Source: an uncultured Bdellovibrionales bacterium (GTDB taxonomy: Bacteria > Patescibacteriota > Minisyncoccia > Moranbacterales > UBA11712). From it: a DNA stretch of 50,094 nucleotides. Below, piece by piece: positions 4,186 through 29,154 of the stretch. The stretch's first letter is position 1, and every line of letters begins with the position of its first letter. The stretch spans positions 36,003 to 86,096 of the forward strand of contig CAZIWW010000001.1 in assembly GCA_964543275.1 (NCBI GenBank), given 5' to 3'. The position numbers and the translations under genes are program-made. A model generated the notes under the pieces. The model was not told the DNA's origin, ran no database searches, and saw only the letters and a program-made list of their open reading frames with translations.

Positions 4186-5688
4186 GTGCTTAAGGGAATA
4201 GAAATCTCAAGTAAAATAAAAATCCTTATCATCAGCTCCGTGGCATTGGTTGTATTATTTATACTGTGCCCTTTTGAGCTAGGCGCGGTTTCTTCGGATG
4301 CTGGTCAGGGAGCTAAAGTAACAACGGCTCAAGCCCAGACGGCCGAAGAAGTTTCCGATGACTACGAGCTTTATCAGAAGTATCTTTTGTATAAAAAATA
4401 TAAGAAGAAGCGACTTTATAAAAAATACAAGAAATATAAAAAATACAAAAAAAAGTATAAATTTGATAGTAAGGCGGAGAGAAGACAGTATAAAGAATAC
4501 TACAAGCTTTATAAGCTCTACAAAAAAAATCCTGGTCGCTACAAGCGCTATGCCAGATATTACGAACAGTACAAAAAGTACCGCGGGTATAAACATAAGT
4601 ACAAGCCTTACCGAAAATACAAAAAGTACGGTAAGTATAGAAAGTATAACAAGGCTTCTTATAATAAGTATAAAAAATACGGATCAAAAGCTTATAAAGA
4701 TGGCTACAGCCGATACTTGAATGCCCAGGGAAAACAGACAACGGGGATAGTTAACTTGGGCGAGGCTGATTTAGGTGGTGGATTGCTTGGCCCGAACATC
4801 TCGGTTGGCATTCAGAGCTATACTAAAAATGATTTGAGGAACAGCCCTTTTAAGATCAGCGCCAACAAAGACTATAACATCAGAGACAAGAACGGGAATA
4901 TAATCGCTTCGGTTTCTGCGTCTGCTCGGACTAAGGTTAAATACGCTTCGGGCGGCAATCTGAAGATATATGGATCAATAACAGAGAGGACTGTAGCTGC
5001 GGAGGTCAGGTTTGACGCCACCGACGGCAATAACGATGATTTGATTTTTGATGTAAATAAGCCTGGCTCAAGTTACGATCGTTACCGCGGTAAAATAAAA
5101 CTTCGCTTTTACGACAGCTCTAAATCCAACTGCGATCGCATTTGGGTTATCAACACTCTGCCGCTGGAGCATTATGTCTGGGGAATGGGGGAGATTAGCG
5201 GGACGGGACCAATGGCTCATAATCGGGTGATGACCACCAGCTACAGGACTTACGGTTATTGGAAAATTAAATTCAGCACTAAGTACGCCGCCCAGGGTTT
5301 TAAAGTCGACGCCACATCTGGCAACCAGATTTATTATGGCTATGATTACGAAATAGCGCACCCCAGAATTAGGTCAGCCGCTGAAGATACTCGCGGAAAA
5401 ATTGTAATGTATCACGGTAAAATAGCTATTACTCCTTATAGTTCTTGGACCGACGGGCGGACCCGCAGTTGGAAAGAGCGCTGGGGGTCGAGTAATTATC
5501 CTTGGTGCAAGTCTGTTCCTGACCCATACGGCAAACATCCCTCCAAAAGTACTTCTCAATTGGTGCGAGAAGGAAATCATATGGTGGGTTTAAGCGCCCA
5601 CGGCTCGCTCGACCGAGGCGACCATTGGGATTGGGAAAGGATTTTAAAATATTATTACAGCGGGATAGATATTGTTGGGGTGTATTAA
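4186..5688 (+). CDS. SpoIID/LytB-domain protein with an N-terminal anchor and a Lys/Tyr-rich low-complexity segment
   Basis: GTG start and a hydrophobic N-terminus. K/Y/R-rich stretch of about 120 aa. C-terminal motifs LPLEHYVWGMGE and TRGKIVMYHGKIAITPYSSWTDGRTRS resemble the SpoIID amidase-enhancer family. Confidence 0.6.
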   Translation: MLKGIEISSKIKILIISSVALVVLFILCPFELGAVSSDAGQGAKVTTAQAQTAEEVSDDYELYQKYLLYKKYKKKRLYKKYKKYKKYKKKYKFDSKAERRQYKEYYKLYKLYKKNPGRYKRYARYYEQYKKYRGYKHKYKPYRKYKKYGKYRKYNKASYNKYKKYGSKAYKDGYSRYLNAQGKQTTGIVNLGEADLGGGLLGPNISVGIQSYTKNDLRNSPFKISANKDYNIRDKNGNIIASVSASARTKVKYASGGNLKIYGSITERTVAAEVRFDATDGNNDDLIFDVNKPGSSYDRYRGKIKLRFYDSSKSNCDRIWVINTLPLEHYVWGMGEISGTGPMAHNRVMTTSYRTYGYWKIKFSTKYAAQGFKVDATSGNQIYYGYDYEIAHPRIRSAAEDTRGKIVMYHGKIAITPYSSWTDGRTRSWKERWGSSNYPWCKSVPDPYGKHPSKSTSQLVREGNHMVGLSAHGSLDRGDHWDWERILKYYYSGIDIVGVY

Positions 5689-5839: not shown

Positions 5840-6358
5840 ATGAAAACCAACAATCTTTTTTTGAAAATAATCTTTGTTGCTTTGGCGGCTGTTATTTTGT
5901 ATTGGGGTTTCGGCGCAATCAAGGAGCGCTATTTTAATAAATCCTCCGAGGGAAATTCTGTACAAGAAGAAGCGCAGAAAGACAAAGAAGCTGTTGAAGA
6001 TGAAAGCGGCGAGGGCTTGAAAGAAGAAATACGGGAAGAGTCGGGCGAGGGCGAGTCGGAAACCGGCATGGAAGGCGACCACCTTTATGTTACCCGCGAG
6101 GACTGCGAAAATAGATGTGAGAAGTTTAAGGACAGCGAAGAGAATCTGAAGTATTGTCAGGAAGTTTGCGGTCTAGTTCCAATTTCCGAAGTTGAAAACT
6201 GCGATGGCTTGGAAGGCCTGGAAAGGGATTATTGTCTCAAAGATTTGGCTGTTAGGAAAAAAGACGACAATATCTGCGACGAGATCAGAGATAACAAAAT
6301 CAAGCAAGTTTGCCGCAATCGGGTGGCGGAAGAAATTTTGAGCGAGATGGGATTGTAA
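5840..6358 (+). CDS. Hypothetical membrane-anchored acidic, Cys-rich protein
   Basis: 172-aa ORF with an N-terminal TM (IIFVALAAVILYWGF), an acidic linker and a C-terminal half with regularly spaced Cys. Followed by a terminator. Confidence 0.5.
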   Translation: MKTNNLFLKIIFVALAAVILYWGFGAIKERYFNKSSEGNSVQEEAQKDKEAVEDESGEGLKEEIREESGEGESETGMEGDHLYVTREDCENRCEKFKDSEENLKYCQEVCGLVPISEVENCDGLEGLERDYCLKDLAVRKKDDNICDEIRDNKIKQVCRNRVAEEILSEMGL

Positions 6359-6368: not shown

Positions 6369-6394
6369 GCGCAGAGACAAACTCCGCGTTTTTG
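6369..6394 (+). terminator. Rho-independent terminator candidate
   Basis: GCGCAGAG-ACAAA-CTCCGCG stem (one mismatch) followed by TTTTTGTTT. Confidence 0.55.
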
Positions 6395-6439: not shown

Positions 6440-6483
6440 TTATCCACAGAAGTTTTTTATTGCGGAGAGTTTTGTGGTATAAT
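6440..6483 (+). promoter_or_regulatory. Extended -10 promoter preceded by a perfect DnaA-box 9-mer
   Basis: TTATCCACA at 6440-6448. TGG-TATAAT (extended -10) at 6475-6483. ATG 6490 lies 7 nt after the -10 with no SD. Confidence 0.5.
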
Positions 6484-6489: not shown

Positions 6490-7803
6490 ATGAATAATAA
6501 AGAGAAAGACAATCATTGGCCATATAAGGAACCTTTCTCTTCCAAGAAGCGTCCTGGGAAAATAATTCTTTCAGAAAAAGAGAGAAATAATCTTGCGAAT
6601 GAAATCATCTCTTCTATTTTTAATGATTCAAATAATACTTTAAGTCTTGAAGGGCATAACCGTGATTCTAGTATTGACGCGAAGGGCGAAAAACTAAGTT
6701 CAGAAAAAGAATTAAATTTCGAGGAACAGGCGCGCGGAGAGATTAGAAACGCTTTCGATTCGTTTTTTCGGGAAATTAAGGCGCTTGTTGGCAGAGAAGG
6801 CATAAAAGGGTTATTAGAAATTGGGATTAATGCTAATAGTCTGGAAAAGGAGCTTCATATTTTTAACGACGAAAAAATTATTAAGCGATGTTGCGAGACC
6901 GTTCTTAAAATTTTTCACAACAAACAGGATAACGGTCTCGGTATTAGAAATTGGGCGAATACGGTTGTTGAAACGGCTTTGAGAAAGGAAGGAGAGGAAA
7001 TAGCAAAAGCGCTCGATGTTATTAGAAATAGAAAGATAAGTAGCGGCGAAGTGAAAATAGGAAAGGTGATTAGGAGAAAGTCGCCTGAGTCTGATGATGT
7101 TCTTTCAGCTAAGAGCGAAGCTCCATCCGGAGAAGGGGAAATTGTTCTCGGGAATGAACAAGAGGTAAGTGAGGATGATCTTCAAGAGCAGTTAAAAGAA
7201 ACGGTGAGAGGGATTGTTAACAGTGAAATAGAGAAGATTAAAAACGAAAGCCTGATAAGCCGAGGAGTGAAATACGACAGTTACATTGAAGGAAAAATTA
7301 AATCTCAATGGTTAAAGGCCGGTGAGTTAACTGGCGACGAAATTAGCGAGATAGCAAAAAAATATCTGGAAGAGAGACAAAAAGTCGCGGATGCCGTGAC
7401 GGAAGATATTCTGGAGAATCTTGAACTAAATCCGGGCAGAAAGAAAGACGAAGGATACATTTCAACACTCGCTTTTTTGTGGACTAGAAAGAAAATTTTC
7501 GAATACGCGGAAGAGTATTTGGAAAACAAAAAGGTTTCTGAAAAAGGAAAGTTAGATTTTACTCCGGAACAGCAGGAGGCTGTTGATTTGTTATTAGAGG
7601 AAGCATCAGGATACAACGAAGAAATTGCTGGCATTTTGGAGAGAAGCGGCAAGGCGAAGTTTTATACTGCTGAAAATATAAGCAATCTTATTGAATCTCA
7701 TTTAAGAGAATTAATTTTCAAAAATTTTGTGGAAGATAAATTTTTTTCAGATAGTGACGTTGAAAAAGTGGTTAAGCATGTTTTAGAAAATTTAAATAAG
7801 TAG
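6490..7803 (+). CDS. Hypothetical acidic, predicted helical protein (no family recognised)
   Basis: Long ORF. Start moved to ATG 6490 because the promoter lies inside the TTG-6460 extension. No TM; E/K-rich. Confidence 0.55.
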   Translation: MNNKEKDNHWPYKEPFSSKKRPGKIILSEKERNNLANEIISSIFNDSNNTLSLEGHNRDSSIDAKGEKLSSEKELNFEEQARGEIRNAFDSFFREIKALVGREGIKGLLEIGINANSLEKELHIFNDEKIIKRCCETVLKIFHNKQDNGLGIRNWANTVVETALRKEGEEIAKALDVIRNRKISSGEVKIGKVIRRKSPESDDVLSAKSEAPSGEGEIVLGNEQEVSEDDLQEQLKETVRGIVNSEIEKIKNESLISRGVKYDSYIEGKIKSQWLKAGELTGDEISEIAKKYLEERQKVADAVTEDILENLELNPGRKKDEGYISTLAFLWTRKKIFEYAEEYLENKKVSEKGKLDFTPEQQEAVDLLLEEASGYNEEIAGILERSGKAKFYTAENISNLIESHLRELIFKNFVEDKFFSDSDVEKVVKHVLENLNK

Positions 7804-7805
7804 TT

Positions 7806-10232
7806 ATGACAGAGGTTTTTAAAGAAATATTGAAAGCGGGCGCAAGACGTGGAGAGGAATTTGCTAAAAAGGCAAAGGGGCTTAGAAGTGGAAGTCAAGA
7901 GGAATTACCCAAAGCTACTGATGAGGAATTGGCGCAGGCGGAACTGTATGAACAGAAAAAAGAAACTGGACGGAAGAACGATCTTAAGGACGGTCTTGGA
8001 GAAACACATAAAGGAGACGGAGCTCAAGGGGTACTTGAGGGAGCGAGAGGCACTGCTACTGCTATGCTGGGGGAGAATCAGGAAGAACCGCGGCAAAAAT
8101 CTCTTACTGAAGCTGAAGCAAAAGGAGATGAAGATCCATCATTAGTTGAGAATGCTGAACTGGCTGGAGAGCATATCACTGAAGAGGTGCCGAAAAAAGA
8201 AGAGAAAGGTGAAGGGACCAAGAGTTTAGAGATGTTAAAAAAGGATCTTGAGGAAAAAAGGGCAAAGTACGCTCGTTTAGATACAGATATTTCGGGTAAG
8301 TGGTCGAGGCTTAAGAGAGTGCTGGGCTTGAATATTAAAGAAGTGAAGAACAAAGATGTCGATGTTGAGAAAGCCAGACGGGAATATTATGAAGCGTTGG
8401 AAAAATATGCCGGCGCAAGAAAGGCTTCCTTGCCGGAAGGAGATAAGAAAGCGGCTGCGGAACTTTTAAAAGAAGTTCGTCTTGATGAGGCGCTTAATAT
8501 TTTTAATGCCAAAACGGACGAAAGGTTAAAGGCGAGAAAAGAAAGAGGCGATTGGCCAAGCAAGTTAATGGACGGATATATGAAAGCGGTTGAGAAGTGG
8601 CGGGGATACAATTGGAAAACAAAGCTTGCTCTTTCGGGGATTTTGTTAACTGCCGGGGCAGCCAGTGGTCTTTATGGAATTGCTTTTGGTTCCATAGGCG
8701 CTGGAGTTTTTTCAACATTTAAAATTTCCCAGAGGGCGTTAAGCGCCGGAGCAACTGGACTTGGGATAAAGAAGATGTGGGATGCGGCTTCCTTAAAACG
8801 AATGGAGAAAAAATCAGTGAAAGAAATCGAGGGAATGTTATCGAAAGATGATTGGTTAGACAGGTTTGATTCTAAATTAGATGAGAGCATAAAATCTGTT
8901 AATGAGAGGCTGGCAAAGATAGAAAAGAAGGATTTAACGAGGAAAAGAGTTGCGGTGTGGGCTGGTATTTTGTTTGGCGGCGGAGGAATGATTTTCGATA
9001 TTTATAAGGGCTGGTCCGGATCCGGATTGGGGAAAACGGCGGACGTGGTTTCCGGCAAGCCGTCCGGCGCCGGGGTGACCGATGTGCGTAAGCCGAGCGG
9101 GATTGGTCAACCCCCCGTTGAAAAAACTCCAGGTACTCATATAGGTACTCATATTGAGCCGCCCAAAGCGCCTCCGGCCGACGAAGTAATTAAGTCGCCG
9201 GCAGTTACTACAGAGGATATTATTAGCAAGCCGCCCGATAAATATGTTACAACTCCGATTCCAGCGGAGACAACTGAAAAGATGACGGAGTTTATGGGAG
9301 ACTCAACTGAAATTAAAAAAGGCGGAAGTATTTGGAAATCGGTGCGAAGGTTGTATATGAAGCATCCGGAAGAGTATGGATATGGTTCGGACGGAGAGCG
9401 AGTTAAAAGCTTGTTTAAATCGTTCAAGGAGCAGGGGATTTTGAAACGTCTGGGAATTCGAGGGATTGATAATTTCGAAGATTTAACCGATGAGCAGAAG
9501 ATTAAAATCTGGTCGGAGTGGAAGACAGCTAATTCTGTCAGGGATCTTTCCATTTCCAGCGGTGGGAGAATTAAAGATTTGGTCCACGCTGGAGATAAGA
9601 TTTTTCTTGATAAGGACGGGAAAATCACTTTTGATTTCGAGCGCGGTTCCGGCATAAGACCGGGCTATTTGTCCGGTCACGAAACTGGCGCGGGTAAGGG
9701 CGGCGGAGTCGCGGAAGTCGTCGGCGGCGGAGCAGGCGCGGAAGAATTTCGCGAAGGCGAGAAGCCGGCTTGGCTTGAGGAATATGATAAAAGAATAGGA
9801 GAAACGAGATTAAGAGAGCAGGCGGCGGAAGCTAGATTAGATAGAGCTGACGAGTATTTGCGGAAGACTAGTGATGATTTAGCGGCGGCTAGAGAAGCAG
9901 AAACAGCGGCTATTGACTACACTCGGACTCATGAATTGATGGATTATATCCAGCAAAAGCTTTCAGGAGTTGATATCGACTGGGGCGCTCGCGGATCGGC
10001 TATGAGAATGTATGACGAATTAAAACAAGGTTCGCTAATTAATTCTGATCAGCCTATGGCGCCGGATATGGGCAAGGAACAGTATTGGAAAACACTCCGG
10101 AGGTTAACTGACGATCTTGGCAAACCGCGAGGTGGCGAAACAGTCGAGGAGTGGGTAAAGAGAGGATTGGAGCGTAAAAAAATTTCTCCAGAAAGAGTAA
10201 TTAGCGTCCTTAAGAAAGTATCCAATGGGTAA
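7806..10232 (+). CDS. Hypothetical large membrane protein (no family recognised)
   Basis: 808-aa ORF starting 2 nt after the previous stop. E/K-rich N-terminal third, central hydrophobic segments (LALSGILLTAGAASGLYGIAFGSIGAGVF; VAVWAGILFGGGGMIF), Pro-rich linker, C-terminal globular part. Confidence 0.6.
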   Translation: MTEVFKEILKAGARRGEEFAKKAKGLRSGSQEELPKATDEELAQAELYEQKKETGRKNDLKDGLGETHKGDGAQGVLEGARGTATAMLGENQEEPRQKSLTEAEAKGDEDPSLVENAELAGEHITEEVPKKEEKGEGTKSLEMLKKDLEEKRAKYARLDTDISGKWSRLKRVLGLNIKEVKNKDVDVEKARREYYEALEKYAGARKASLPEGDKKAAAELLKEVRLDEALNIFNAKTDERLKARKERGDWPSKLMDGYMKAVEKWRGYNWKTKLALSGILLTAGAASGLYGIAFGSIGAGVFSTFKISQRALSAGATGLGIKKMWDAASLKRMEKKSVKEIEGMLSKDDWLDRFDSKLDESIKSVNERLAKIEKKDLTRKRVAVWAGILFGGGGMIFDIYKGWSGSGLGKTADVVSGKPSGAGVTDVRKPSGIGQPPVEKTPGTHIGTHIEPPKAPPADEVIKSPAVTTEDIISKPPDKYVTTPIPAETTEKMTEFMGDSTEIKKGGSIWKSVRRLYMKHPEEYGYGSDGERVKSLFKSFKEQGILKRLGIRGIDNFEDLTDEQKIKIWSEWKTANSVRDLSISSGGRIKDLVHAGDKIFLDKDGKITFDFERGSGIRPGYLSGHETGAGKGGGVAEVVGGGAGAEEFREGEKPAWLEEYDKRIGETRLREQAAEARLDRADEYLRKTSDDLAAAREAETAAIDYTRTHELMDYIQQKLSGVDIDWGARGSAMRMYDELKQGSLINSDQPMAPDMGKEQYWKTLRRLTDDLGKPRGGETVEEWVKRGLERKKISPERVISVLKKVSNG

Positions 10233-10269
10233 GCGGGATTAAGCATTAACAAATATTTATTTTAAACCA

Positions 10270-10593
10270 ATGACTCAAGACACCATTCTTAAACAAACAA
10301 TTATTGAAGAGTTGGGCTTGCGGGATCTTCCCCGAGAAAAAAAAGAAAAAATGCTGGTGAAAATGACCGAAGTGGTTTTGAAGAGAATTTATCTAGAAAC
10401 GGTGGAGAGCTTAAGCGACGCTGATCGAGAGGAGCTGGGCAAACTTTTGGACAAAAAAGCGGAACCGGAAAAGGTCGAAGGGTTTTTAAAGTCCAAATTT
10501 GAAGATTACGACGGGTTTGTGAAAAAAATTGTGGACGATTTTAAAAACGAGATGAAGGAATCGATGACGCAGCTCGAAAATTCAAAATCCTAA
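10270..10593 (+). CDS. Small helical protein, DUF5663-like (tentative)
   Basis: 107 aa. The pattern EELGLRDLPREKKEKML...LSDADREELGKLL recalls the DUF5663 family common in Parcubacteria. The last codons (LENSKS) lie in a repeat arm. Confidence 0.45.
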   Translation: MTQDTILKQTIIEELGLRDLPREKKEKMLVKMTEVVLKRIYLETVESLSDADREELGKLLDKKAEPEKVEGFLKSKFEDYDGFVKKIVDDFKNEMKESMTQLENSKS

Positions 10594-10687
10594 TATCGAA
10601 GTTTCTGCATGGCGGCAAACGGAAATTGCGGGTTTTGAATTTTGAAATTATTTTGTGTTTAGGGTTTAAGATTTTGGATTTAAAATT
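10575..10687. repeat. Hairpin element, AAATCC/AAAATTC family
   Basis: CGAAAATTCAAAATCC (10575-10590, spanning the stop codon) pairs with GGTTTTGAATTTTGAAATT (10631-10649). There is a further arm, AGGGTTTAAGATTTTGGATTT. Confidence 0.5.
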
Positions 10688-10693
10688 AAATTT

Positions 10694-11230
10694 ATGCCAC
10701 AAAGCAAATATCAGGAACCAATTGAGGGAGAAGATCTTGATTTAGAGAAAAAATTTAAAGATGCGCGTGTCCAAAAAGCCGGCGAGGGTTTATTTCCTAA
10801 GGAATCTGTTGGCGAGAAAACTGGGGAGGATGTTGAAGCTGGGAAGAAAGTTACTGAACTAGAAGTAAAGGGAAAGGAGCCGATTAGTCCGGAAAAGGGA
10901 GCTGAAGCGGAAGTTGGCGAGAAAAGGATTTCGGAAAAACTAGAGACGGCTCGCAGAGTTATCGGAGTTCGGCAGGCTGCTCCCAAGACAACCGTAGCCC
11001 AAGACGCCCAAGCCATTTCTCAAATTGCCGAGTATGAAAAGAAAATAGACAAGCTGATGGAGATCGCTACGCACAAGGGGCCGGAACACGCCGTTAAAGT
11101 AGCCCAACATTTAGACAAAAGCAAAATTTCCGCTCGAGCCGATAATTATACTATGGACGAGATTCATGACAAGATGGAGAACGATTTGCGAGAGCGACTG
11201 GTCAAGAAAGGATTGTTGAAGGAGCTCTAG
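10694..11230 (+). CDS. Hypothetical E/K-rich protein
   Basis: 178-aa ORF co-oriented with its neighbours. No motif recognised. Confidence 0.5.
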   Translation: MPQSKYQEPIEGEDLDLEKKFKDARVQKAGEGLFPKESVGEKTGEDVEAGKKVTELEVKGKEPISPEKGAEAEVGEKRISEKLETARRVIGVRQAAPKTTVAQDAQAISQIAEYEKKIDKLMEIATHKGPEHAVKVAQHLDKSKISARADNYTMDEIHDKMENDLRERLVKKGLLKEL

Positions 11231-11289
11231 GGAAAATCCCAATGTCAAAATCCCAATATCCAATAAAATTCCAAATTTCAAATCCCAAG
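11231..11289. repeat. AAATCCCAAT-family arm
   Basis: AAAATCCCAATGTCAAAATCCCAATATCCAATAAAATTCCAAATTTCAAATCCCAAG. Shares a 19-nt complement (CAAAATCCCAATATCCAAT) with the arm at 13167-13205. Confidence 0.55.
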
Positions 11290-11372
11290 ATGTGCGTGAA
11301 GTCTATTTTCCGTAATTTTATTTCTTCGCGGAAAGTACCGCAATACTTAAAATAAAAATTTTAAAATAAAAA

Positions 11373-12728
11373 ATGGCGAATAATACAAACACAAAACCGA
11401 ATCCAAAATTAAAGGATCCTAAAATAAAGGGGACTAAAATTCCCCAAGCTTCATCCAATTCCTCCAGGAAAGTCTTAATTGGCTGTCTGATTGCAGTGGC
11501 TGTTTTTTTGGCATTGGCTATAATTGGCGGTCTGGCCGTTGCCGGGTATTGGTATTACAAGTCTAAGAAGGAAAGCATATTTTCTGAATCTTCGCCGCCT
11601 CCGAGTTGGCAAATAGAGGATGCTAGCCAGGATCAGGAGCAAGAAGAGTCTTCACAGCAAAAACCAGAACAAAAGCCAAGGACAACTTACGAAAACAAGC
11701 AATTTGGTTTTAAGCTTAAGATGACTCCGACTTGGAAGGATTACAAAGCTGTTCAGAAAGATACCGATGGAGGTTTTGGGGCGGCTATAATTGATTTTTA
11801 TCTGCCGTCTTCCAAGGCTGATTACACTGACCTTCCGGGATATGTTGAACTTTTTACTATAAATGTTTACTACATTGAACGCTGGCCCGAGTACCAGGAC
11901 TTTTGCAAAGAAGCTATGTGCGCGGGAGAAGAAGTTGGGAGAAACAGTAAATATGTTTTTACTTACTCTCACATTAGCGGTTTCCCGCCGGACGATGTTT
12001 CGCAGCAGGCTATACTCGATATGGAAACTATCGCGAAGAGTATTGAAATTTTTGAGCCGAGCGGGAGCGGATCGAGTTCCGGCGCCGCGTTGTCCCAGCA
12101 AGGTATCGCCGGTCAGGCGGGAAAGCCGGCTTATAACTCTAATTACGTTTCCGGCGCCAATTACTACGCTAACTGTAAATATCGCTATTCTCTTTATTAT
12201 CCCTCTACTTGGTCAACCGAGGGAGCGACCAGCAATTCCGGACAGGTTTTCTTCGTGGGTCCCAACGCGAGAGTTAAGATCGAATCGCTTGGTCTTACCT
12301 CGGGCGAGTCTTTGGCGGCTTTTGCGGCCAGACGAACGAGTGTAATGGAAGGGAACAAAGTTTGGAGCGAGACGGTGGAATGGGACAGTAAGGGAACGTC
12401 AACAATCAGAAGTTACTTTACTCATCCCGATTCGCAGTCAATGCACTGGATTCAAGGCGGGAGAGGAATGGAGCTTATGGCTTTTGGCGACGGGTATAAT
12501 TCCCAATTTATTAATATCAAAAATCTGCTAGGTTCGCTGACGATTGATTTGGATTATATAGATACTTGCGATTCAAGCAGTTCTTCATCTAATAATCCTA
12601 CAAGTTCTGGGTTTAATTGTGATTCATGGATTCACCCCAACGGGGATATTGAGTATTGGTGGTATAGTCTATCGCAGGAAGAGCAGGATTGTTATGTTAA
12701 GAAATACGGCGATCCGGGGTTTCAATAA
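11373..12728 (+). CDS. Hypothetical N-terminally anchored extracytoplasmic protein
   Basis: 451 aa. TM (VLIGCLIAVAVFLALAIIGGLAVAGYWYY), an S/Q/E-rich linker, then Cys-containing globular regions. Confidence 0.6.
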   Translation: MANNTNTKPNPKLKDPKIKGTKIPQASSNSSRKVLIGCLIAVAVFLALAIIGGLAVAGYWYYKSKKESIFSESSPPPSWQIEDASQDQEQEESSQQKPEQKPRTTYENKQFGFKLKMTPTWKDYKAVQKDTDGGFGAAIIDFYLPSSKADYTDLPGYVELFTINVYYIERWPEYQDFCKEAMCAGEEVGRNSKYVFTYSHISGFPPDDVSQQAILDMETIAKSIEIFEPSGSGSSSGAALSQQGIAGQAGKPAYNSNYVSGANYYANCKYRYSLYYPSTWSTEGATSNSGQVFFVGPNARVKIESLGLTSGESLAAFAARRTSVMEGNKVWSETVEWDSKGTSTIRSYFTHPDSQSMHWIQGGRGMELMAFGDGYNSQFINIKNLLGSLTIDLDYIDTCDSSSSSSNNPTSSGFNCDSWIHPNGDIEYWWYSLSQEEQDCYVKKYGDPGFQ

Positions 12729-12730
12729 GC

Positions 12731-12790
12731 CTATAAATCCCAATGATAAAATCCCAATGTCAAATAAAAATCCAAATCCCAATGATAAAA
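12731..12790. repeat. Left inverted-repeat arm of four-helix-bundle gene cassette 1
   Basis: CTATAAATCCCAATGATAAAATCCCAATGTCAAATAAAAATCCAAATCCCAATGATAAA. Complementary to 13167-13205. Also encodes the N-terminus MSNKNPNPNDKK. Confidence 0.65.
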
Positions 12791-13155
12791 AGTACGATCT
12801 TTTAGGGGGAACAGCTAAATTTGGCGAGGATGTTATTGATCTCGCGGGGACTTTAGGTAAGAATGAAATCAATCGGCCACTAATAAGCCAAGGGATAAGG
12901 TCTTCTACGAGCATTGGCGCTAATTACATGGAAGCTAATGCGGCTGGGTCACGGAAGGACTTCGAGTATAAAATAACTTTGTGTAAAAAAGAGGCTAAAG
13001 AAACGATGCGCTGGTCGCGGATGTTGGCTAGAGCTAATCCAGAAAAGAAAGATGAAATTAGAAAGCTCTGGAAAGAAGCTCAAGAGCTAGTTTTTATCTT
13101 CTCAGCTATTCTTAATAGTTCGAGGAAGAAAGAAAAGCAGAGAAAGGTAAAGTAG
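12757..13155 (+). CDS. Four-helix-bundle protein (23S rRNA intervening-sequence protein / Avd-like family)
   Basis: Start moved to ATG 12757. Motifs IRSSTSIGANYMEANAAGSRKDFEYKITLCKKEAKETMRW match the TIGR02436/PF05635-type pattern as recalled. Confidence 0.75.
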   Translation: MSNKNPNPNDKKYDLLGGTAKFGEDVIDLAGTLGKNEINRPLISQGIRSSTSIGANYMEANAAGSRKDFEYKITLCKKEAKETMRWSRMLARANPEKKDEIRKLWKEAQELVFIFSAILNSSRKKEKQRKVK

Positions 13156-13166
13156 ATATCAATTAA

Positions 13167-13205
13167 GATATTGGATTGGATATTGGGATTTTGGAATTGG
13201 GATTT
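13167..13205. repeat. Right inverted-repeat arm of four-helix-bundle gene cassette 1
   Basis: GATATTGGATTGGATATTGGGATTTTGGAATTGGGATTT. Its reverse complement matches ATAAATCCCAAT / AAAATCCCAAT in the left arm. Confidence 0.65.
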
Positions 13206-13211
13206 ATTACA

Positions 13212-15758
13212 ATGGATACTTGGAATCTTAATCTAATACTCTATCCGCTGGCTATTACGCTGGCTATAATATGTTTTGGCTCCGGAGCTTGGCTGGTGTT
13301 CCGCAGTTTTGTCATTTTCCGAGGGCAGATTACTCGGTCGCTTAATATGAATCTGGATGTGGTAAAGGTGAGTCGGCCGCTCAAACAAGAAGGTCAGGTA
13401 GGGGAGCAGGTCCAACCCAAATCGGAGAAGGAAATAATTTCAGTAATGGAGCATCTTCTGGCCAGTCTGGTGAATGTTAAAGAGAAGGCCGGTCTTTTGC
13501 GCCGGCTTATTTACGGCGACGCGGTGATTGCTCTAGAGATAGCCAACGCGGCTGACGACGACCAAATTACTTTTTATGTGGGAGCGCCGAAGAAATTTAT
13601 GGGACTTGTGGAAAAGCAAATACACAGCTTTTATCCAAAAGCTTCCATTGAAAGAGTGAAGGACTACAACATTTTTTCTCCGGGAAGCTTTACATCGGCT
13701 TCTCTTCTCAAGCTTAAGGAAAAATATTATCTTCCTATAAAAACTTACCAGTTCTTGGAGGCTGATCCGCTTAACAATATTACCAATGTGCTTGGGAAGT
13801 TTGACGAGAAAAAAGAAGGAGCGGCTATTCAACTGCTTATTAAACCGGCTGGAGGCAATTGGCGCGGCAAGGGAAGAGAAGTGGCTCACAAGATGCAGCA
13901 GGGTCGGAGATTAAGCGAAGTTAAGAGAGATACCTTTTTTAGAAATTTATTTGGTGGACTTTTTAAAACATTTACGGACGTTGGCAAAAAGGACGAACAT
14001 TCTAAAAAAGATCCTTTTAAGAACGAAAGGGAGCCAATTAGTCTTACTCCGGAGGAGCAGGAGGTGGTTAAAAAAATAGAAAGCAAAGTCGGCAAGTCGG
14101 GTTTTAAAGTCAATATCAGATTGGTGGCTTCGGCCTTGACACAAGAAAGGTCCGAAGTGATTTTGTCGGAGCTGGAGAACGCTTTCATTCAATACGAGAA
14201 TCCGGGGCTTAATAGTTTTCGAGTTGTCCGGGAAAATAAATTAAGGCCAAGAAATATTGCCTTTGATTTTATTTTCCGAAATTTTAAAGAAGAGCAAAGC
14301 TTTATTCTTTCCTCCGAGGAGGTAGCCAGCATTTTTCATTTCCCGATTTTCTCGACCGAGACTCCAAAAATAAACTGGCTTAAGGCACGGGCGGCTGCGC
14401 CTCCTTCCAATATTTCTAAAGAAGGAATTATCATTGGCTACAACAATTATCGGGGAGTAGAGACTGTTATTCGCCACGGCGATGACGATCGCCGACGCCA
14501 TTTCTATGTTGTTGGTCAAACTGGCACTGGTAAGTCGACTATGATGGAAGAAATGGTCAAGCAGGACATTAAAGCCGGCAAGGGAGTTTGCGTTATTGAT
14601 CCTCACGGGGAATTTATTGAGCATGTCATTGAATGTATTCCAAAGGGAAGAGCGGAGGACGTTATTTATTTTGATCCGGCTGATATGGAACGCCCTTTTG
14701 GGCTCAATATGCTGGAATACGACGAGCGAAAGCCGGAACAGAAAACTTTTGTTATAAATGAATTGATCAATATCTTTGACAAGCTTTACGATCTTCGTCA
14801 AACCGGGGGGCCGATGTTTGAACAGTATATGCGCAACGCGGCTTTGTTAGTAATGGAGCATCCGGAATCTGGCTCGACGCTGATGGAAATTCCTAAAGTT
14901 TTGGCTGACGAAGAGTTTCGTCGCATGAAACTTGAGAAATGCACCAATCCGGTGGTGAAAAATTTTTGGGAGAAAGAGGCCGAGAAAGCCGGAGGTGAAG
15001 CGGCGTTGGCCAATATGGTTCCATATATCACTTCTAAGCTGACTCAATTTATCTCCAACGATATGATGCGGCCCATTATTGCTCAACAGAAGACGACAAT
15101 CAATTTCCGCCAGGCTATGGATGATCAGCAGATTATTTTAGTCAATCTTTCCAAGGGCAAAATTGGCGAGATTAATAGTTATCTTTTGGGAATGATAGTC
15201 GTAGGCAAGATTTTAATTGCGGCCTTGTCTAGAGTGGAAATTCCCGAAGAAGAGCGCAAGGATTTCTATCTCTACATCGATGAATTTCAAAATGTGACTA
15301 CTGATTCCATCGCTCAAATCCTTTCGGAAGCCAGAAAATACCGGCTTGACTTAATTATCGCTCATCAGTTCATCGGGCAACTCAAAGAAGAAATTTCCAA
15401 AGCCGTATTCGGCAATGTGGGTTCAATGTGCTCTTTTAGAGTCGGAGCCGAAGACGCGGAGTTCTTGCAAAAGCAGTTTGAGCCTGTTTTCGACGCCAAC
15501 GATCTTATGAATGTGGACAACTATAATTGCTTCGTGAAACTTTTAATTAACAACGAAGCGGCCGCCCCGTTCAATATGAAGACTTATCCGCCGACCAAAG
15601 GCAATAAAGAAATCGCCGAAGCCATCAAAGAATTATCCAAACTCAAGTACGGCCGCAATCGCGAAGTGGTCAATGAAGAGATTATGAAACGTGCTAGTTA
15701 TGCTGTAACGCGAGTTCCTGCGGCGGATGCGTTTGATATGGGAGAAAAACCGCTATAG
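13212..15758 (+). CDS. Membrane-anchored TraD/TraG/VirD4-type (FtsK/HerA-like) P-loop ATPase
   Basis: Start moved to ATG 13212, because the track N-terminus is a translated repeat arm. N-terminal TM. Walker A VVGQTGTGKST, IDPHGEF, Walker B-like FYLYIDEFQN, RKYRLDLIIAHQFIGQL. Confidence 0.7.
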   Translation: MDTWNLNLILYPLAITLAIICFGSGAWLVFRSFVIFRGQITRSLNMNLDVVKVSRPLKQEGQVGEQVQPKSEKEIISVMEHLLASLVNVKEKAGLLRRLIYGDAVIALEIANAADDDQITFYVGAPKKFMGLVEKQIHSFYPKASIERVKDYNIFSPGSFTSASLLKLKEKYYLPIKTYQFLEADPLNNITNVLGKFDEKKEGAAIQLLIKPAGGNWRGKGREVAHKMQQGRRLSEVKRDTFFRNLFGGLFKTFTDVGKKDEHSKKDPFKNEREPISLTPEEQEVVKKIESKVGKSGFKVNIRLVASALTQERSEVILSELENAFIQYENPGLNSFRVVRENKLRPRNIAFDFIFRNFKEEQSFILSSEEVASIFHFPIFSTETPKINWLKARAAAPPSNISKEGIIIGYNNYRGVETVIRHGDDDRRRHFYVVGQTGTGKSTMMEEMVKQDIKAGKGVCVIDPHGEFIEHVIECIPKGRAEDVIYFDPADMERPFGLNMLEYDERKPEQKTFVINELINIFDKLYDLRQTGGPMFEQYMRNAALLVMEHPESGSTLMEIPKVLADEEFRRMKLEKCTNPVVKNFWEKEAEKAGGEAALANMVPYITSKLTQFISNDMMRPIIAQQKTTINFRQAMDDQQIILVNLSKGKIGEINSYLLGMIVVGKILIAALSRVEIPEEERKDFYLYIDEFQNVTTDSIAQILSEARKYRLDLIIAHQFIGQLKEEISKAVFGNVGSMCSFRVGAEDAEFLQKQFEPVFDANDLMNVDNYNCFVKLLINNEAAAPFNMKTYPPTKGNKEIAEAIKELSKLKYGRNREVVNEEIMKRASYAVTRVPAADAFDMGEKPL

Positions 15759-15762
15759 CGGT

Positions 15763-15891
15763 AAATTCAAAATTCTAAGCACTAAATCCTAAACAAATCC
15801 AAATATCAAAATCCGAATTTTCAAAACATTCTGTATTTTGTTATTTGAATTTTGATATTATTTAGGATTTGGAATTTAGAGCTTTGGATTT
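15763..15891. repeat. Hairpin element without an ORF, AAATCC family, arms of about 60 nt
   Basis: Left arm AAATTCAAAATTCTAAGCACTAAATCCTAAACAAATCCAAATATCAAAATCC... pairs with right arm ...GATATTATTTAGGATTTGGAATTTAGAGCTTTGGATTT. Short loop near 15828-15832. Confidence 0.6.
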
Positions 15892-15913
15892 ATTTAAGAG
15901 GGGAGGTGAAAGT

Positions 15914-16100
15914 ATGAATCGACAATCCGTGGGGCCAATTTGCCAAAGTTACGGGATGCCGATAATGAAAGACGAGGATTTTATGACCAATGCCGACGGC
16001 CGGCAGTAAAAACGAAGAGTATCGCTAGTCGCGGGAGTGGACAGAGTGCAGACAATTTTCCAAGAAGGCTCACGCATAGTTTAAGATGTTGCGCGAATTA
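15914..16100 (+). pseudogene. Decayed putative zinc-ribbon protein gene
   Basis: SD GGGAGGTGA precedes ATG 15914. Reads MNRQSVGPICQSYGMPIMKDEDFMTNADGRQ, then TAA. KNEEYR continues in frame, then TAG. Resembles the CQSCGMP...GTNADGSKSEEYCxYC family with a Cys lost and stop codons acquired. Confidence 0.4.
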
Positions 16101-20260: not shown

Positions 20261-23200
20261 TTATTGCCCATTCACAATTCTTTCAATTCTTACATAGGCC
20301 CTTTTTGAAATATGCTCCGCTAAACTATAGACAACAGGGATAACCACCAATGTCAGCGCTGAAGAAACAAGCAGTCCGCCGATAACCGCGATAGCCATAG
20401 GACGCATCATTTCCGAACCTTCCTGCCGAGCCAGCGCCATTGGCAACATGCCCAAGATAGTGGTAATGGAGGTTATTAAAATCGGGCGCAGACGAGTTGT
20501 TCCGCCTTCCACTAGAGCGTCGAATTTGCTTAATCCTCTTTCGCGCAACTGGTTGACGTAGTCAATCAGCACAATAGCGTTGTTAACCACAATGCCGGCT
20601 AGCATTATAATTCCCATAAAGGAAGGCAGTGATAAAGTTTGTCCGGTTATGAACAGCGCCAAGCCTATTCCAATAAAGGCTAGCGGCAGTTCAAACATAA
20701 CAACAAAAGGATGAATTAAAGATTCAAATTGTGATGCCATTATCATATACACCAGCAAAATTCCGAGCGCTAAAGCCCAGCCCAGCGTTCCAAATGTTTC
20801 CCGCATTTGTTTGTACGAGCCGCCATATTCAATGAAGTATCCTTGAGGCAGCCGCGTCTCGTCTGTTTTTTTCCGAATGTCGCTCATTACGCCGCCGATG
20901 TCTCTGTCAACGACGTTGGCGGTGACTGAAGCTACTCTCAATTGATCTTCGCGGTTGATTTTTATGGGTCCCTCGCCATGGGAAATTTGAGCTACCTGCT
21001 GAAGCAGTATCCGGCTTCCGGCAGGAGTATTAATGGAAAAGTTTTTTATTCCTTCTATGTCGTTTCGGTAAGCCTCGTCGTAGCGCACTCTTATATCTGT
21101 TTCTTCTCCTCCCTGTCGGAATTGGGTAGCCACTGTTCCCTGCATAGAATCTTTAATCGCGGAAGCAATTTGTCCAATGGTTAAATTAAAATGGGCGGCT
21201 CGTTCGCGATCAATGTTGATAATCAGCTCCGGTTTGCCTTCGCTTAAAGTGGTGTCGGCGTCGCGCACGCCAGGCACATCCTTAATCTCTTGAGCGATCT
21301 TATCAGAAATGCTTTTTAGCTTGTCTAAATCTTTTCCGAAAACTTTAATTTCGATTGGAGAACTTGAGCCGCTTATTAAAACCTTGCCCATATCCATAAA
21401 GTTAATCTCCAAACCTCTTATTCTAGGAAGTTTTCTTCTTATCATCTCTTGAATTTCTTCGGCTGAATACTTTCTATCCATCTTGTTTTTTAGTCTAATG
21501 AAAATTTGGGCTTCGTTAGCACCAGCCGCTCCAAGTCCCGAAGCAGCGCTTTCACCTCTGCTCGCTTCATCCAAACCAGCAAAGCTGGTAACGGTTGTCA
21601 CTCCTTCAATGTTAATTAAATCGCTTTCTATCTGGCTTACGACTTTATTGGTTTCCTCCAAAGATGTGCCAATGGGCATTTTAGCCATCAATAGCATCAT
21701 ACTTTGATCGCTGACTGGCATAAATTCAGTGCCGATAAAGGGAATTAATGCAATGGTTATTGCCAGCAGTCCGATTGTTGTTGCCATAGTCTTTAAACGA
21801 TGGTTCAACGACCACCGTAAAATCTTCTTATAGACATTCTTTACTTTAACAAAATGTTTTTTGCCAGACGCTTCTTGATAATCTTCCGCCCGTTCTCTTT
21901 TCTTGAAAATCTTGGAAGCGATCATTGGCACTAAAGTCAAGGCTACAAACAAGGAAGAGAATAAAGCAAAAATAATAGTCAAGGCTAGGCCCCGGGATAA
22001 TTGTCCGGTGATGCCTGTTCCAAGAGTCATTGGCACAAATACGGCCGCGGTGGTCAGAGTAGCGGCGGTGATGGCCATTCCAACTTCGTTAGATCCAATA
22101 ATAGCCGACTTTTTCCTCTGGCCTGTCTTTTCCAAATGGCGGTAGATGTTCTCAATCACCACTACCGCATTGTCAACCAGCATGCCGATTCCCAGCGCCA
22201 GCCCTCCCAGAGTCATTAAGTTTAAAGTATAGCCAACGGCATAGATGGGAATAAAGGTGGCAATTAAAGACAGAGGGATGGCCACAGCGATAGCCGCGGT
22301 CGGCCGCCAATTTCTCAAAAACAAATAAATTATCAGCACAGCCAGCAATCCGCCGATTATTCCGCTTTGCATCACAGAGCTAGTCGAAGTCTTGATTAAA
22401 TGGCTTTGATCCATTACTAGCTTGAAATCAACATCTTGGGGAAGATATTTTTCTACTTTCGGCATCTCGCTTTTAACTGCGTCGGCAACTTGAGAAGTAT
22501 TGGCCCCCGATTGCTTGTTTACCAGCAACAGAACACTGTCTTTTCCATTAGTTCGAGAATAGCTTCTTGATTCCTTGTGTGTGTCAATCACTTCTGCCAC
22601 ATCTTTCAAATAAGTCGGGGTATTGTTATTGACCGCGATAACAATATTTTCTATCTCGGCCAAATTTTCAAATTTTCCCACCGTTCGCAAAGGAAGCTCA
22701 AGCAGTCCCTGCTCTATAAATCCGCTGGACAAATTTATGTTTTCTCCGCGCAAAACTTGAACAACTCGAGCTTGAGTTATGTTATAGGCTTCGAGTTGCG
22801 GCTTATTTAGCTTAACCAAAATCTCCCGTTCTTGACCGCCCCTCAATTCTACCGAGGACACGCCGTCTAACCTTTCAATCTTGTCCTTAACATTATCTTC
22901 CAGAAGATTTTTCAACTCCAAAGTGGTTAAATTATCAGAAGTAACGCCGTAGCCCAACACTGGCATAGCTTCCACATCCATCTTAATCACCATTGGTTTG
23001 TTGGCGTCCGGCGGCAGTCGGTTTTCTATCAAGCCGACTTTATCTCTGATGTCTTGGGCGGCAAAGTCAATGTTAGTGCCGCTTTCAAACTCAACCATAA
23101 CTATGGAAACTCCTTCCTGGGAAATGGAGCGCAACGATTTAACGTCTTTTACGGTAGCAACCGCGTCTTCGATTGGCTTAGTAATCACGTCTTCAATATC

Positions 23201-23380: not shown

Positions 23381-23391
23381 AAGTGATAAAA

Positions 23392-24519: not shown

Positions 24520-24625
24520 AATTAATTTACTTACTGCTTATATGCGCTCTGGAGTTTCTGAAAATCCTAATAAGACTCTCTTGTTCTTTATGATTAAGCA
24601 TGGTTAAAATTTTCTGCGCGCGCTT

Positions 24626-25438: not shown

Positions 25439-25620
25439 GGTTTTTTAGCAATCTCTATTTCCAGCGCTTTTAATTATTTAATTATTTTATCTCTGCTTTT
25501 TTAATCTCGAAATAATAAGACTTGCCGATGTCAAGCCGGAAGGTTAGCTAGCGGATAATCAGGCAATGCCAATCAATAAAACATTGCAAGACGCTCAATA
25601 TAATTGAGCGCCTGGAATAT

Positions 25621-25758: not shown

Positions 25759-25817
25759 TTTTTTGGTTTTTTAGCTAAATTATTAATGCCCTTAAGGCGG
25801 GCTAATCCTCGACCTAA

Positions 25818-27404: not shown

Positions 27405-27427
27405 ATCGACACTGCTCACGGCACTTG

Positions 27428-28090: not shown

Positions 28091-28098
28091 ATAGCAGT

Positions 28099-29034: not shown

Positions 29035-29154
29035 CTGGAAGCTTCGTTTTATTTAAGGATTATATCGTGGGAGCCCTATTCGTTCATCGTATTGATCCGT
29101 AATTCGCGCAGAAAAAAACATAAAAACAAAATTAACCTAGGGGGCTCGAAGAAG

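Follow-up and report, generated by a model that had tools for sequence, protein, structure and literature searches.

The gene block and its genomic context

The block under study lies within a window of 50,094 nucleotides, the whole stretch of DNA analysed, which is ordinary chromosome with a dcw cluster and genes for PFOR, ClpB and RecR. Inspection of the open reading frames revealed seven co-directional + strand genes between 6490 and 15758, one fewer than the eight counted in a preliminary description of this DNA, while the nearly abutting junction of the first two, with a stop at 7803 and an ATG at 7806, was found as described. The features are as follows.

6475..6483, + strand: extended -10-like element TGGTATAAT (sequence read)
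6490..7803, + strand: 437-aa gene (ORF confirmed)
7806..10232, + strand: 808-aa gene (ORF confirmed)
10270..10593, + strand: DUF5663 gene, 107 aa (ORF confirmed; Pfam PF18908)
10694..11230, + strand: 178-aa gene (ORF confirmed)
11234..11281, + strand: 48-nt AAATCC-rich repeat, copy 1 (repeat search)
11373..12728, + strand: 451-aa gene (ORF confirmed)
12735..12782, + strand: 48-nt AAATCC-rich repeat, copy 2, 85% identical to copy 1 (repeat search)
~12754..13155, + strand: four-helix-bundle gene (ORF confirmed; TIGR02436 / 23S_rRNA_IVP)
13212..15758, + strand: ATPase gene, 848 aa (ORF confirmed)

The longest ORF of the 437-aa gene begins at TTG 6460, and the element TGGTATAAT, which had been taken as the promoter of the block, is indeed a perfect extended -10 that ends 6 nt upstream of ATG 6490. 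It lacks statistical support, however, as a promoter consensus scan of the region returned 21 sites against 20.4 in shuffles, no excess over chance. Because promoter-like sites occur here at chance level, a block promoter at 6475-6483 is unproven and the element may be regarded as a possible one; were it used, the first gene would be leaderless or near-leaderless. A hairpin with a T-run at 6370-6394 lies between the upstream Cys-rich gene and the block, and this terminator sets the Cys-rich gene apart from the block as a separate transcription unit.

Pfam scans of ORFs of at least 120 aa detected no VirB4, VirB6, relaxase or pilin families in the 50-kb window, in line with what had been noted before as far as separate genes are concerned. 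PADLOC matches to defence systems fell on the ATPase domain only (mad8, HerA) and on none of the other six proteins.

Genes conserved with the ATPase

Comparison with 84 related Moranbacteria-type loci delimited a conserved core of four genes, namely those of the 808-aa, DUF5663 and 178-aa proteins and of the ATPase. In 76 of 79 related loci, the gene immediately before that of the ATPase belongs to the 178 family, and a median of 48.5 nt separates the two. A DUF5663 gene lies upstream in 57 of 76 loci. An iterated HMM detected the 808 family upstream in 45 of the 66 loci with over 4 kb of sequence on that side, and all three partners occur together in 43 of these 66. In three related loci, including the complete genome L054, the ATPase has no adjoining partners. 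The earlier proposal of an ATPase with lineage-specific partners in a CPR organism was thus retained, but the seven genes do not constitute one apparatus: the 808-aa, DUF5663 and 178-aa genes are conserved alongside that of the ATPase, whereas its other three neighbours, the 437-aa, 451-aa and four-helix-bundle genes, are not.

The 437-aa protein is acidic, has no TM segment and belongs to no family in Pfam, NCBIfam, PADLOC or PHROG. No homologue was found in the 84 loci, nor among positional equivalents, and the genes that occupy its position elsewhere fall into many unrelated clusters. The gene occupies a slot before the 808-family gene that is hypervariable among loci, and it is not a conserved component; its product may be a cargo or an accessory protein particular to the lineage. 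The 451-aa protein also has no homologue in the 84 loci. It carries a single predicted TM segment (residues 34-52) and an extracytoplasmic body, as had been foreseen, and gave only sub-threshold matches to TIGR03931 (24 bits, cut-off 47.6) and to a phage tail fibre family (E 8e-4). Its gene is flanked by the two 48-nt repeats and is a lineage-specific insertion outside the conserved module.

The four-helix-bundle protein, correctly recognised as such at the outset, matches TIGR02436 (E 4e-17) and 23S_rRNA_IVP. A second copy of this family interrupts the PFOR genes at 38699-39091, and only one other locus (L030) has such a gene between the 178-family gene and the ATPase; it is a multi-copy inserted gene that lies outside the module. 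The expectation that the neighbours would lie outside known unrelated families failed for this gene but held for the 808-aa and 178-aa proteins, neither of which has a match in Pfam or PDB.

Alignment divides the 178-aa protein into three parts: a conserved peptide at the N-terminus, a disordered acidic linker and, at the C-terminus, a helical domain of some 70 aa. It had previously been listed as an "E/K-rich" protein, its role not being singled out. Throughout one Paceibacteria clade, the 178 domain is fused to the N-terminus of the ATPase, where it replaces the TM helix. The 178 family and the N-terminal extension of the fused ATPases are matched by hhalign with a probability of 91.5% (E 8.5e-7), and their HMM matches are reciprocal in both directions. 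Since the domain is fused to the ATPase in Paceibacteria, a physical link between the two proteins is argued for; the acidic 178-aa protein is the tightest, dedicated partner of the ATPase. The fused forms possess no TM helix, and membrane anchoring of the ATPase is consequently not universal.

The fused gene is often situated between SecY-Adk-Map and NDK-RNase J. In this clade, 808 and DUF5663 genes rarely adjoin the ATPase, and DUF5663 also adjoins the fused ATPase in L085 and L160. The 107-aa protein of the window, described before as DUF5663-like, scores above the gathering threshold of PF18908 (E 4.7e-6, 27.5 bits versus 23.7; profile positions 1-83 of 84). It is small, helical and cytoplasmic, and it is a conserved partner in the Moranbacteria-type clade.

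The 808-aa protein is composed of an N-terminal coiled-coil region, two hydrophobic segments, a Pro-rich linker and a C-terminal domain. The central TM segments ascribed to it correspond to Gly/Ala-rich stretches at residues 274-308 and 382-400, which are kept in homologues but are only weakly hydrophobic. The family evolves fast, with approximately 32% identity as against about 80% for the ATPase, and is a candidate membrane or envelope component.

Gene order within the module is retained down to 52% ATPase identity, which, together with the 178-ATPase fusion, the housekeeping context of the ATPase gene in both clades and the failure to find any relaxase, integrase or flanking tRNA at the block, argues against the view that the block forms no functional system and that its genes share a neighbourhood through descent alone or are left over from an integrated conjugative element. 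Such a view would be in keeping with the lack of conservation of four of the eight genes listed in the preliminary description, with insertions in the 178-ATPase spacer of the window, L030 and L042, and with the occurrence of ATPase homologues outside the phylum on plasmids and phages, but we deem it very improbable.

The ATPase and its family

All motifs ascribed to the ATPase (GQTGTGKST, IDPHGEF, YLYIDEFQN and RKYRLDLIIAHQ) were confirmed, and the catalytic motifs are invariant in 42 homologues. The protein starts with one TM helix at about residues 6-30, its hydrophobic stretch predicted at 8-26, likewise as described, followed by the DUF8128 N-terminal domain (residues ~47-375), a TrwB/VirD4-like P-loop motor (~406-800), in which the AF2 model places an all-alpha insertion at ~510-637, and conserved C-terminal helices. 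The assignment of DUF8128 (PF26449) derives from a precomputed match on the 100% identical protein P0001 and on all homologues among the matches listed, while a scan with the local Pfam copy gave no PF26449 match on the window ATPase.

The VirD4-type nature of the ATPase was upheld by two Pfam models, T4SS-DNA_transf (35.5 bits, threshold 20.1) and TrwB_AAD_bind (42.1 bits, threshold 20.5), and by TrwB and DotL as the best PDB sequence matches, whereas curated T4CP equivalogs remained far below their cut-offs (SXT_TraD 51.6 versus 366 bits, CD1115 35.7 versus 250). TrwB is also the best structural match to the motor domain, whose model superposes on it with a target TM-score of 0.61-0.65 and an rmsd of 5-6 A (Foldseek; AF2 pLDDT 71.5). 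For residues 1-405, the top 14 Foldseek matches comprise TrwK/VirB4 only, with E values of 4e-5 to 1e-3 and the next matches at 0.03 or above; the query TM-scores are 0.34-0.38, the rmsd 8-10 A and the model pLDDT 66.6. The predicted fold of DUF8128 may be that of the VirB4 N-terminal domain, its only match in PDB, on models of medium confidence (pLDDT 66.6-71.5). This half of the ATPase being putatively VirB4-like in fold, the earlier statement that VirB4 is absent is limited to separate genes. The ATPase itself was rejected as a VirB4, as sequence models were not matched (TIGR00929 13.6 versus 643.1 bits; no CagE_TrbE_VirB (PF03135) match) and the motor is closer to VirD4 by sequence.

More than 7,000 ATPase homologues were found, and the N-terminal domain is present in 3,001 clusters at 50% identity. 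The ATPase occurs almost universally, is encoded on the chromosome and is strongly constrained by purifying selection, with 60-80% identity throughout the order, as might be expected of a housekeeping DNA translocase of division or segregation, an FtsK substitute or paralogue; genes for an FtsQ-like POTRA protein and for FtsA/PilM near the ATPase in Moranbacteria-type loci, and the dcw cluster at a distance of 12 kb in the window, would suit this role. We nonetheless consider it improbable, as the window ATPase has no FtsK_SpoIIIE (PF01580) match and one TM helix compared with four in FtsK, its N-terminal domain is predicted to be VirB4-like, its relatives outside the phylum are conjugation proteins, and a separate ftsK is annotated in one Patescibacterium at least, TM7x (PMC10768705). 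Assignment to HerA was rejected as well (NF040819 19.6 versus 970 bits; no NurA-like neighbour), and the generic DUF87 domain is matched with 43.7 bits (threshold 23.2). By sequence, the ATPase falls outside the housekeeping FtsK and HerA families.

A proposed coupling-protein motor and its partners

Full-length relatives of the ATPase occur in conjugation clusters on Bacillus and actinomycete plasmids, with 22-28% identity over 80-90% coverage. One on an Embleya plasmid adjoins PrgI, an ATP-binding protein, a replication-relaxation protein and NlpC/P60, another on a B. subtilis plasmid lies near TcpD and TcpE, and the N-terminal-domain HMM matches the Bacillus plasmid protein with an E value of 3e-19. 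The large monoderm T4CPs, such as the pLS20 gene 48 product ("putative VirD4", 786 aa), the Embleya plasmid T4CP and the DUF87 protein of a 65-kb B. subtilis plasmid, resemble the window ATPase in having an N-terminal domain, a TM anchor, a length of ~800-900 aa and T4CP Pfam domains. They are encoded in conjugation operons that also contain relaxase, VirB4, VirB6 and VirB1-like genes, whereas the window ATPase is chromosomal, has Patescibacteria-specific partners and no VirB4, VirB6 or relaxase gene nearby; no such gene is seen in the Pfam-annotated related loci either, and no 178, DUF5663 or 808 relatives were found beside the plasmid homologues.

With TrwB (R388)/VirD4, the window ATPase shares the aligned Walker A followed by DPxG, the Walker B region and, in the model, an all-alpha insert between Walker A and B. 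Unlike these, it has no relaxosome partner, and in place of the ~70-aa TM segment that precedes the TrwB motor there are ~330 extra residues forming a separate N-terminal domain. TrwK/VirB4 likewise have two domains, and VirB4 proteins are the best full-length Foldseek matches. Cagbeta (8dol) is also among the structural matches.

We give about an even chance to the interpretation that the four-gene unit represents a type IV coupling-protein motor which has been domesticated and has adaptors specific to the lineage. The ATPase would descend from large coupling proteins (T4CP, VirD4 family) of monoderm conjugative elements, would have become fixed in the chromosome and would be built of a membrane anchor, a VirB4-NTD-fold domain and a TrwB-like hexameric motor with an all-alpha insertion. 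We infer that the 178-aa protein serves as an adaptor or regulator whose C-terminal helical domain docks on the N-terminal, membrane-proximal face of the ATPase; this would leave its acidic linker and conserved N-terminal peptide free to bind something else, and DUF5663 is a probable second adaptor. By analogy, both may have counterparts in the pairs DotL-IcmS/IcmW, Cagbeta-CagZ and TraD-TraM, in which a coupling ATPase is encoded with dedicated cytoplasmic partners that are small and acidic or helical; neither the 178-aa protein nor DUF5663 has sequence or profile similarity to any of these. The fast-evolving 808-aa protein may be the component on the side of the membrane or envelope. Powered by ATP hydrolysis, the hexamer would recruit a protein or nucleic acid as its macromolecular substrate and drive it to or through the cytoplasmic membrane, either via a partner within the module or by passing it on to the VirB4-type T4SS encoded elsewhere in most Patescibacteria. 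Transfer to a host cell, as suggested at the outset, would be a hypothetical use of such a motor.

T4CP, FtsK and HerA motors are nucleic-acid translocases, and the ATPase with an 808-type partner might accordingly be an autonomous DNA/RNA importer or exporter for nucleotide scavenging, independent of the VirB4 T4SS, that feeds the nucleotide-salvage enzymes encoded beside the ATPase in Paceibacteria. There, NDK lies at most 400 nt downstream of the fused ATPase in 27 of 71 loci and at most 3.5 kb downstream in 37 of 71, often followed by a beta-CASP RNase J-like gene; one clade shows this synteny, in only about half of its loci, and the clade of the window lacks it, and Adk and Map are ordinarily the last genes of the spc operon. 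None of the partners has an identified nucleic-acid-binding domain, and the module contains no channel-forming polytopic protein. We therefore hold such a pump to be unlikely, even if a cultivated Patescibacterium takes up host RNA by a mechanism not resolved in that study (bioRxiv 10.64898/2026.06.21.733656) and T4CP homologues occur in more genomes than VirB4 (2,918 versus 2,417; PMC12102498).

The same paper (Quinonero-Coronel et al., 2025; PMC12102498) reports VirD4-like homologues in those 2,918 of 3,035 Patescibacteria genomes, with 148 of 5,713 homologues near virB4; the window ATPase is very probably one of the 5,713. The sections consulted contain no description of t4cp neighbours, of the DUF8128/VirB4-like domain or of the fusion, and our literature search for DUF8128 and DUF5663 found no papers. 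In S. epibionticum, the t4cp homologue is reported there to be dispensable for epibiotic growth while the T4SS is essential, and coupling of the module to a T4SS of this type is for that reason doubtful. The conserved module, whose small partner protein is fused to the ATPase in sister lineages, offers a testable handle on a nearly universal motor of the ultra-small Patescibacteria.

The gene block and its surroundings

By ORF scan, the + strand block between 6490 and 15758 consists of seven co-directional genes; the preliminary description had their common orientation right but counted eight.

Genes of the block, from the ORF scan unless stated otherwise
6490-7803, +, 437-aa protein
7806-10232, +, 808-aa protein
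10270-10593, +, 107-aa DUF5663 protein, passing the family threshold
10694-11230, +, 178-aa protein
11373-12728, +, 451-aa protein
about 12754-13155, +, four-helix-bundle protein, member of TIGR02436 / 23S_rRNA_IVP
13212-15758, +, 848-aa ATPase

The almost abutting stop (7803) and ATG (7806) reported for the first two genes are present, the DUF5663-like and four-helix-bundle calls agree with the family assignments listed, and the four ATPase motifs quoted earlier were all found in the ORF and are invariant across an alignment of 42 homologues. Hydropathy analysis gave a single helix each for the ATPase, where it is N-terminal, and for the 451-aa protein, and the central TM segments formerly attributed to the 808-aa protein reduce to two weakly hydrophobic Gly/Ala-rich stretches, which are kept in its homologues. 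As for the promoter proposed at 6475-6483, a perfect extended -10 element, TGGTATAAT, is indeed there, ending 6 nt 5' of the ATG at 6490 of the 437-aa gene, but a consensus promoter scan of the region yielded promoter-like sites that are not in excess over shuffles. At this distance from the ATG, the element would imply either a leaderless first gene or a true start further downstream. A hairpin followed by a T-run (6370-6394) terminates the Cys-rich gene (5840-6358) upstream of the block.

The remaining window is ordinary chromosome, with PMT-type glycosyltransferases, an RND pump, a dcw cluster, PFOR, ClpB, HtrA and RecR, and Pfam searches of its ORFs of >=120 aa revealed no T4SS, pilin or relaxase family, consistent with the absence of VirB4, VirB6, relaxase and pilin-like genes stated before. 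Several features of these surroundings were recorded in passing. In this CPR genome, presumably of a monoderm, the - strand stretch 20261-26405 encodes an AcrB-type RND transporter (E 1.5e-279), an HlyD-type adaptor, a patatin-like phospholipase and a TetR regulator, and the GC skew reverses across it. The SpoIID/LytB-like protein (4186-5688) has an unusual N-terminal part of ~130 aa composed almost wholly of Lys/Tyr repeats (YKKYKK...). In the 350-nt gap 3' of the ATPase gene, a short ORF (15915-16010, MNRQSVGPICQSYGMP...) may, judged by eye, be a degraded zinc-ribbon-type gene fragment. Also recorded were genes for an IS200-like Y1 transposase and for a protein of DUF5656, another CPR-associated family of unknown function (43043-43696; 46416-47243).

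Conserved neighbours of the ATPase

Databases contain >7,000 homologues of the ATPase; those nearest to it carry the label Moranbacteria and are 60-82% identical. We fetched 84 related loci, called their ORFs and screened these with iterated HMMs derived from the window proteins, taking as the denominator of each upstream count the loci that have enough upstream DNA. The 178-aa family lies directly upstream of the ATPase in 76 of 79 loci (median gap 48.5 nt), DUF5663 lies upstream in 57 of 76 and the 808-aa family in 45 of 66, all three being found together in 43 of 66; further upstream, a divergent PMT_2 gene pair is present in 50 of 59. This gene order is kept at ATPase identities as low as 52%. 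The 84 loci contain no homologue of the 437-aa, 451-aa, Cys-rich, SpoIID-like, nitroreductase or transglutaminase-like gene, and these were rejected as members of the system. Thus, the co-occurrence with the ATPase that was to be tested for the 808-aa, 451-aa and 437-aa proteins is borne out for the 808-aa family, but not for the other two. The + strand ORFs that fill the slot upstream of the 808-family gene form many clusters with no relation to one another. From these comparisons, we limit the conserved core to four genes, in the order 808 - DUF5663 - 178 - ATPase, and regard the other genes of the block as lineage-specific.

Identity to the closest relatives decreases from about 80% for the ATPase through 62-66% for DUF5663 and 52-58% for the 178-aa protein to about 32% for the 808-aa protein, and is not significant for the 437-aa slot. 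The 178 and 808 families had no usable match in profile searches of Pfam, PDB, PADLOC and PHROGs; a LysM-like split motif in the C-terminal part of the 808-aa protein was a visual impression that no model supported, and was discarded. A defence system was dismissed as well, as the PADLOC matches are only to the generic ATPase domain. So was a mobile element, in view of the kept chromosomal synteny and of a window in which no integrase, relaxase or flanking tRNA was found (its only tRNA lies at 34.8 kb).

Two 48-nt AAATCC-rich repeats, 85% identical, bracket the 451-aa gene (11234-11281 and 12735-12782), and this pair looks like an insertion footprint. In two of the related loci, L030 and L042, the spacer that separates the 178-family and ATPase genes likewise contains insertions. 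Further AAATCC/GGATTT-rich intergenic repeats, REP-like and in part arranged as inverted pairs, are located at 10625-10683, 15762-15893, 27978-28092 and 31648-31703. The four-helix-bundle (23S_rRNA_IVP / Avd-like) genes are multi-copy and located inside operons: a second one in the window (38699-39091) splits the PFOR subunit genes, and L030 carries one (4416-4784) at the equivalent spot 5' of its ATPase gene. In another related locus, L086 (8571-9986), a bAvd gene and a reverse transcriptase lie just upstream of the ATPase. A diversity-generating retroelement comprising the 451-aa and four-helix-bundle genes was considered and rejected for the window, which contains neither a reverse transcriptase nor a template/variable repeat pair, only short AAATCC-rich intergenic repeats. 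Separately, a five-copy intergenic motif, CTCTACGAATTACGAAT...TACGAATATACGAA, is found at 27423-27472, 28987-29036, 38294-38343, 40268-40317 and 49821-49870. Copies precede mraZ, the second four-helix-bundle gene and the DivIC-like gene, another follows the PFOR alpha gene, and one adjoins recR; the motif may serve as a regulatory or REP-type element.

Architecture and relatives of the ATPase

In the C-terminal half of the ATPase, the Pfam models T4SS-DNA_transf, TrwB_AAD_bind and DUF87 scored above threshold, and the FtsK_SpoIIIE and VirB4 models were below threshold or gave no match; a PDB profile search returned TrwB and DotL as sole matches. Judged by these profiles, this half is a coupling-protein motor. 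The N-terminal domain corresponds to Pfam DUF8128 (precomputed matches). A full-length AlphaFold2 model (pLDDT 71.5) was searched against the PDB, and its top 12 matches are TrwK/VirB4 of R388 with both halves aligned (E 3e-14 to 1e-11), followed by HerA and then TrwB; the low TM-scores of the TrwK/VirB4 matches are attributed to the relative domain orientation. TrwB matches the motor alone (target TM-score 0.61-0.65, rmsd 5-6 A). When residues 1-405 were modelled separately (pLDDT 66.6), the best 14 PDB matches were all TrwK/VirB4 (E 4e-5 to 1e-3), with all others at E >=0.03. On these results, the protein would combine a VirD4-like motor with an N-terminal domain of probable VirB4-like fold, behind a single TM helix; the fold assignment is graded as moderately supported, because its TM-scores are only 0.34-0.38. 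Against the rival proposal that the ATPase has an FtsK-like role in division speak the missing FtsK profile match, the apparently VirB4-like N-terminal domain and the separately annotated ftsK of TM7x.

Outside the phylum, tblastn identified full-length relatives (22-28% identity over 80-90% of the protein) on Bacillus, Streptomyces, haloarchaeal and Sulfolobus plasmids and in the Bacillus phages G (gp156), SP-10, CP-51 and JL. These are large phages, whose full-length homologues (JN638751 for phage G; 21-24% identity over 79-89%) are annotated hypothetical; in PHROGs, the full-length family is phrog_5156 (E 2.4e-88), which carries an unknown-function label. The homologue on an Embleya plasmid has as its neighbours PrgI (VirB3-like), an ATP-binding protein, a replication-relaxation protein and an NlpC/P60 hydrolase. 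That of a 65-kb B. subtilis plasmid is encoded 5' of the TcpD and TcpE genes, and this B. subtilis plasmid protein is matched by the HMM of the N-terminal domain alone (E 3e-19). A comparable 786-aa 'putative VirD4' has been described for pLS20-family plasmids (PMC8557374). No relative of the 178, DUF5663 or 808 families was found in the plasmid loci examined. From these plasmid and phage relatives, their conjugation-gene neighbours and the absence of the partners we therefore conclude that the ATPase descended from large coupling proteins of monoderm conjugation systems, and that its partners are Patescibacteria inventions.

The fused form and the proposed role of the module

Among 1.84 billion representative proteins, 3,001 clusters match a profile of the N-terminal domain at E <=1e-3, and 1,722 do so at E <=1e-10. 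Some members of 910-930 aa are devoid of the TM helix and carry an N-terminal extension of ~150 aa instead, which is matched by the HMM of the stand-alone 178-aa family. Alignment of the two by hhalign gave a probability of 91.5% (E 8.5e-7) over the C-terminal helical domain, and the reciprocal HMM hit 39 ORFs in Moranbacteria-type loci, the best 15 of the 39 being the stand-alone gene directly 5' of the ATPase. All 120 matches listed for one fused protein cover ~98% of its length; source labels, present on few of these 120, read Paceibacterota, Taylorbacteria or Patescibacteria, and cluster look-up of more distant family members gave Wolfebacteria labels only. Such a Rosetta-stone fusion predicts a direct physical interaction between the 178-aa protein and the ATPase, in which the 178 domain would act at the ATPase N-terminus, at the site of the membrane anchor in the window's version. 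Both the fusion and the conserved chromosomal synteny contradict the notion that the block is an ICE remnant or a chance neighbourhood.

The setting of the fused form was followed on three long contigs and in 80 metagenome loci. The fused gene often comes after the spc ribosomal operon, SecY, Adk and Map (Map <=3.5 kb upstream in 35/69 loci) and before NDK, DUF2238 and a beta-CASP RNase J-like gene. Of 71 loci, 27 have NDK no more than 400 nt downstream and 37 no more than 3.5 kb downstream. This is a housekeeping, not a mobile, setting. The string SecY-Adk-Map-[fused ATPase]-NDK-DUF2238-beta-CASP RNase was seen in roughly half of the Paceibacteria loci (L085-L167). DUF5663 and an 808-like gene adjoin the fused ATPase only occasionally (L085, L160), and DUF5663 was discarded as a universal partner in the fused clade, where one of ten small ORFs 3' of the ATPase matched, weakly. 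Solely from the partial NDK and RNase J synteny, one might picture the DUF8128 ATPase, the 178-domain adaptor and the membrane partner as a VirB4-independent pump that takes up host nucleic acids and feeds NDK/RNase J salvage; we consider this improbable, though if true, the pump would be the missing machine for host nucleic-acid uptake by Patescibacteria. Uptake of host RNA by a cultivated member of the phylum is described in a 2026 preprint (bioRxiv 10.64898/2026.06.21.733656).

In our literature search, no mention of DUF8128 or DUF5663 was found. Quinonero-Coronel et al. (2025, PMC12102498) report 5,713 VirD4-like homologues, spread over 2,918 of 3,035 Patescibacteria genomes (~96%) and only 148 of them near virB4, and VirB4 in 2,417 genomes; for S. 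epibionticum they give the t4cp homologue as dispensable for epibiotic growth and the T4SS as essential, and conclude that exaptation 'cannot be ruled out'. The T4SS cluster of S. epibionticum is without a recognisable coupling protein (Wang et al., 2023). As T4CP homologues are wider spread than VirB4, t4cp is dispensable in S. epibionticum and fused forms without TM helix exist, we lean towards some autonomy of the motor from the VirB4 T4SS.

Building on the observed family, architecture, gene order, fusion and conservation of the catalytic motifs, we propose that the ATPase assembles at the membrane into a hexamer like that of TrwB, and that the helical domain of the 178-aa protein docks on the N-terminal face of the ATPase, offering the acidic linker and a conserved N-terminal peptide to another partner or substrate. 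DUF5663 may be a second small cytoplasmic cofactor, and the 808-aa protein, the fast divergence of which we liken to that of surface-exposed proteins, a membrane or envelope component. ATP hydrolysis would then drive a substrate, either protein or nucleic acid, to the membrane or across it; as a speculation, the product of the hypervariable upstream gene (437 aa here) might be cargo.

Patescibacteria are unable to synthesise nucleotides, lipids or amino acids for themselves, and macromolecule traffic with their hosts is for this reason a central question. The earlier observations hold for the most part and their interpretation holds in part: a coupling-type ATPase with lineage-specific partners stands, with a smaller and different set of partners, and the system is best read as a domesticated coupling-protein module. 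One VirD4-like gene is thereby placed in a delimited module whose partners can be named and whose genomic surroundings are of the housekeeping kind, and the VirB4-like N-terminal domain and VirD4-like motor that its ATPase appears to combine in one protein would link the two T4SS ATPase families.
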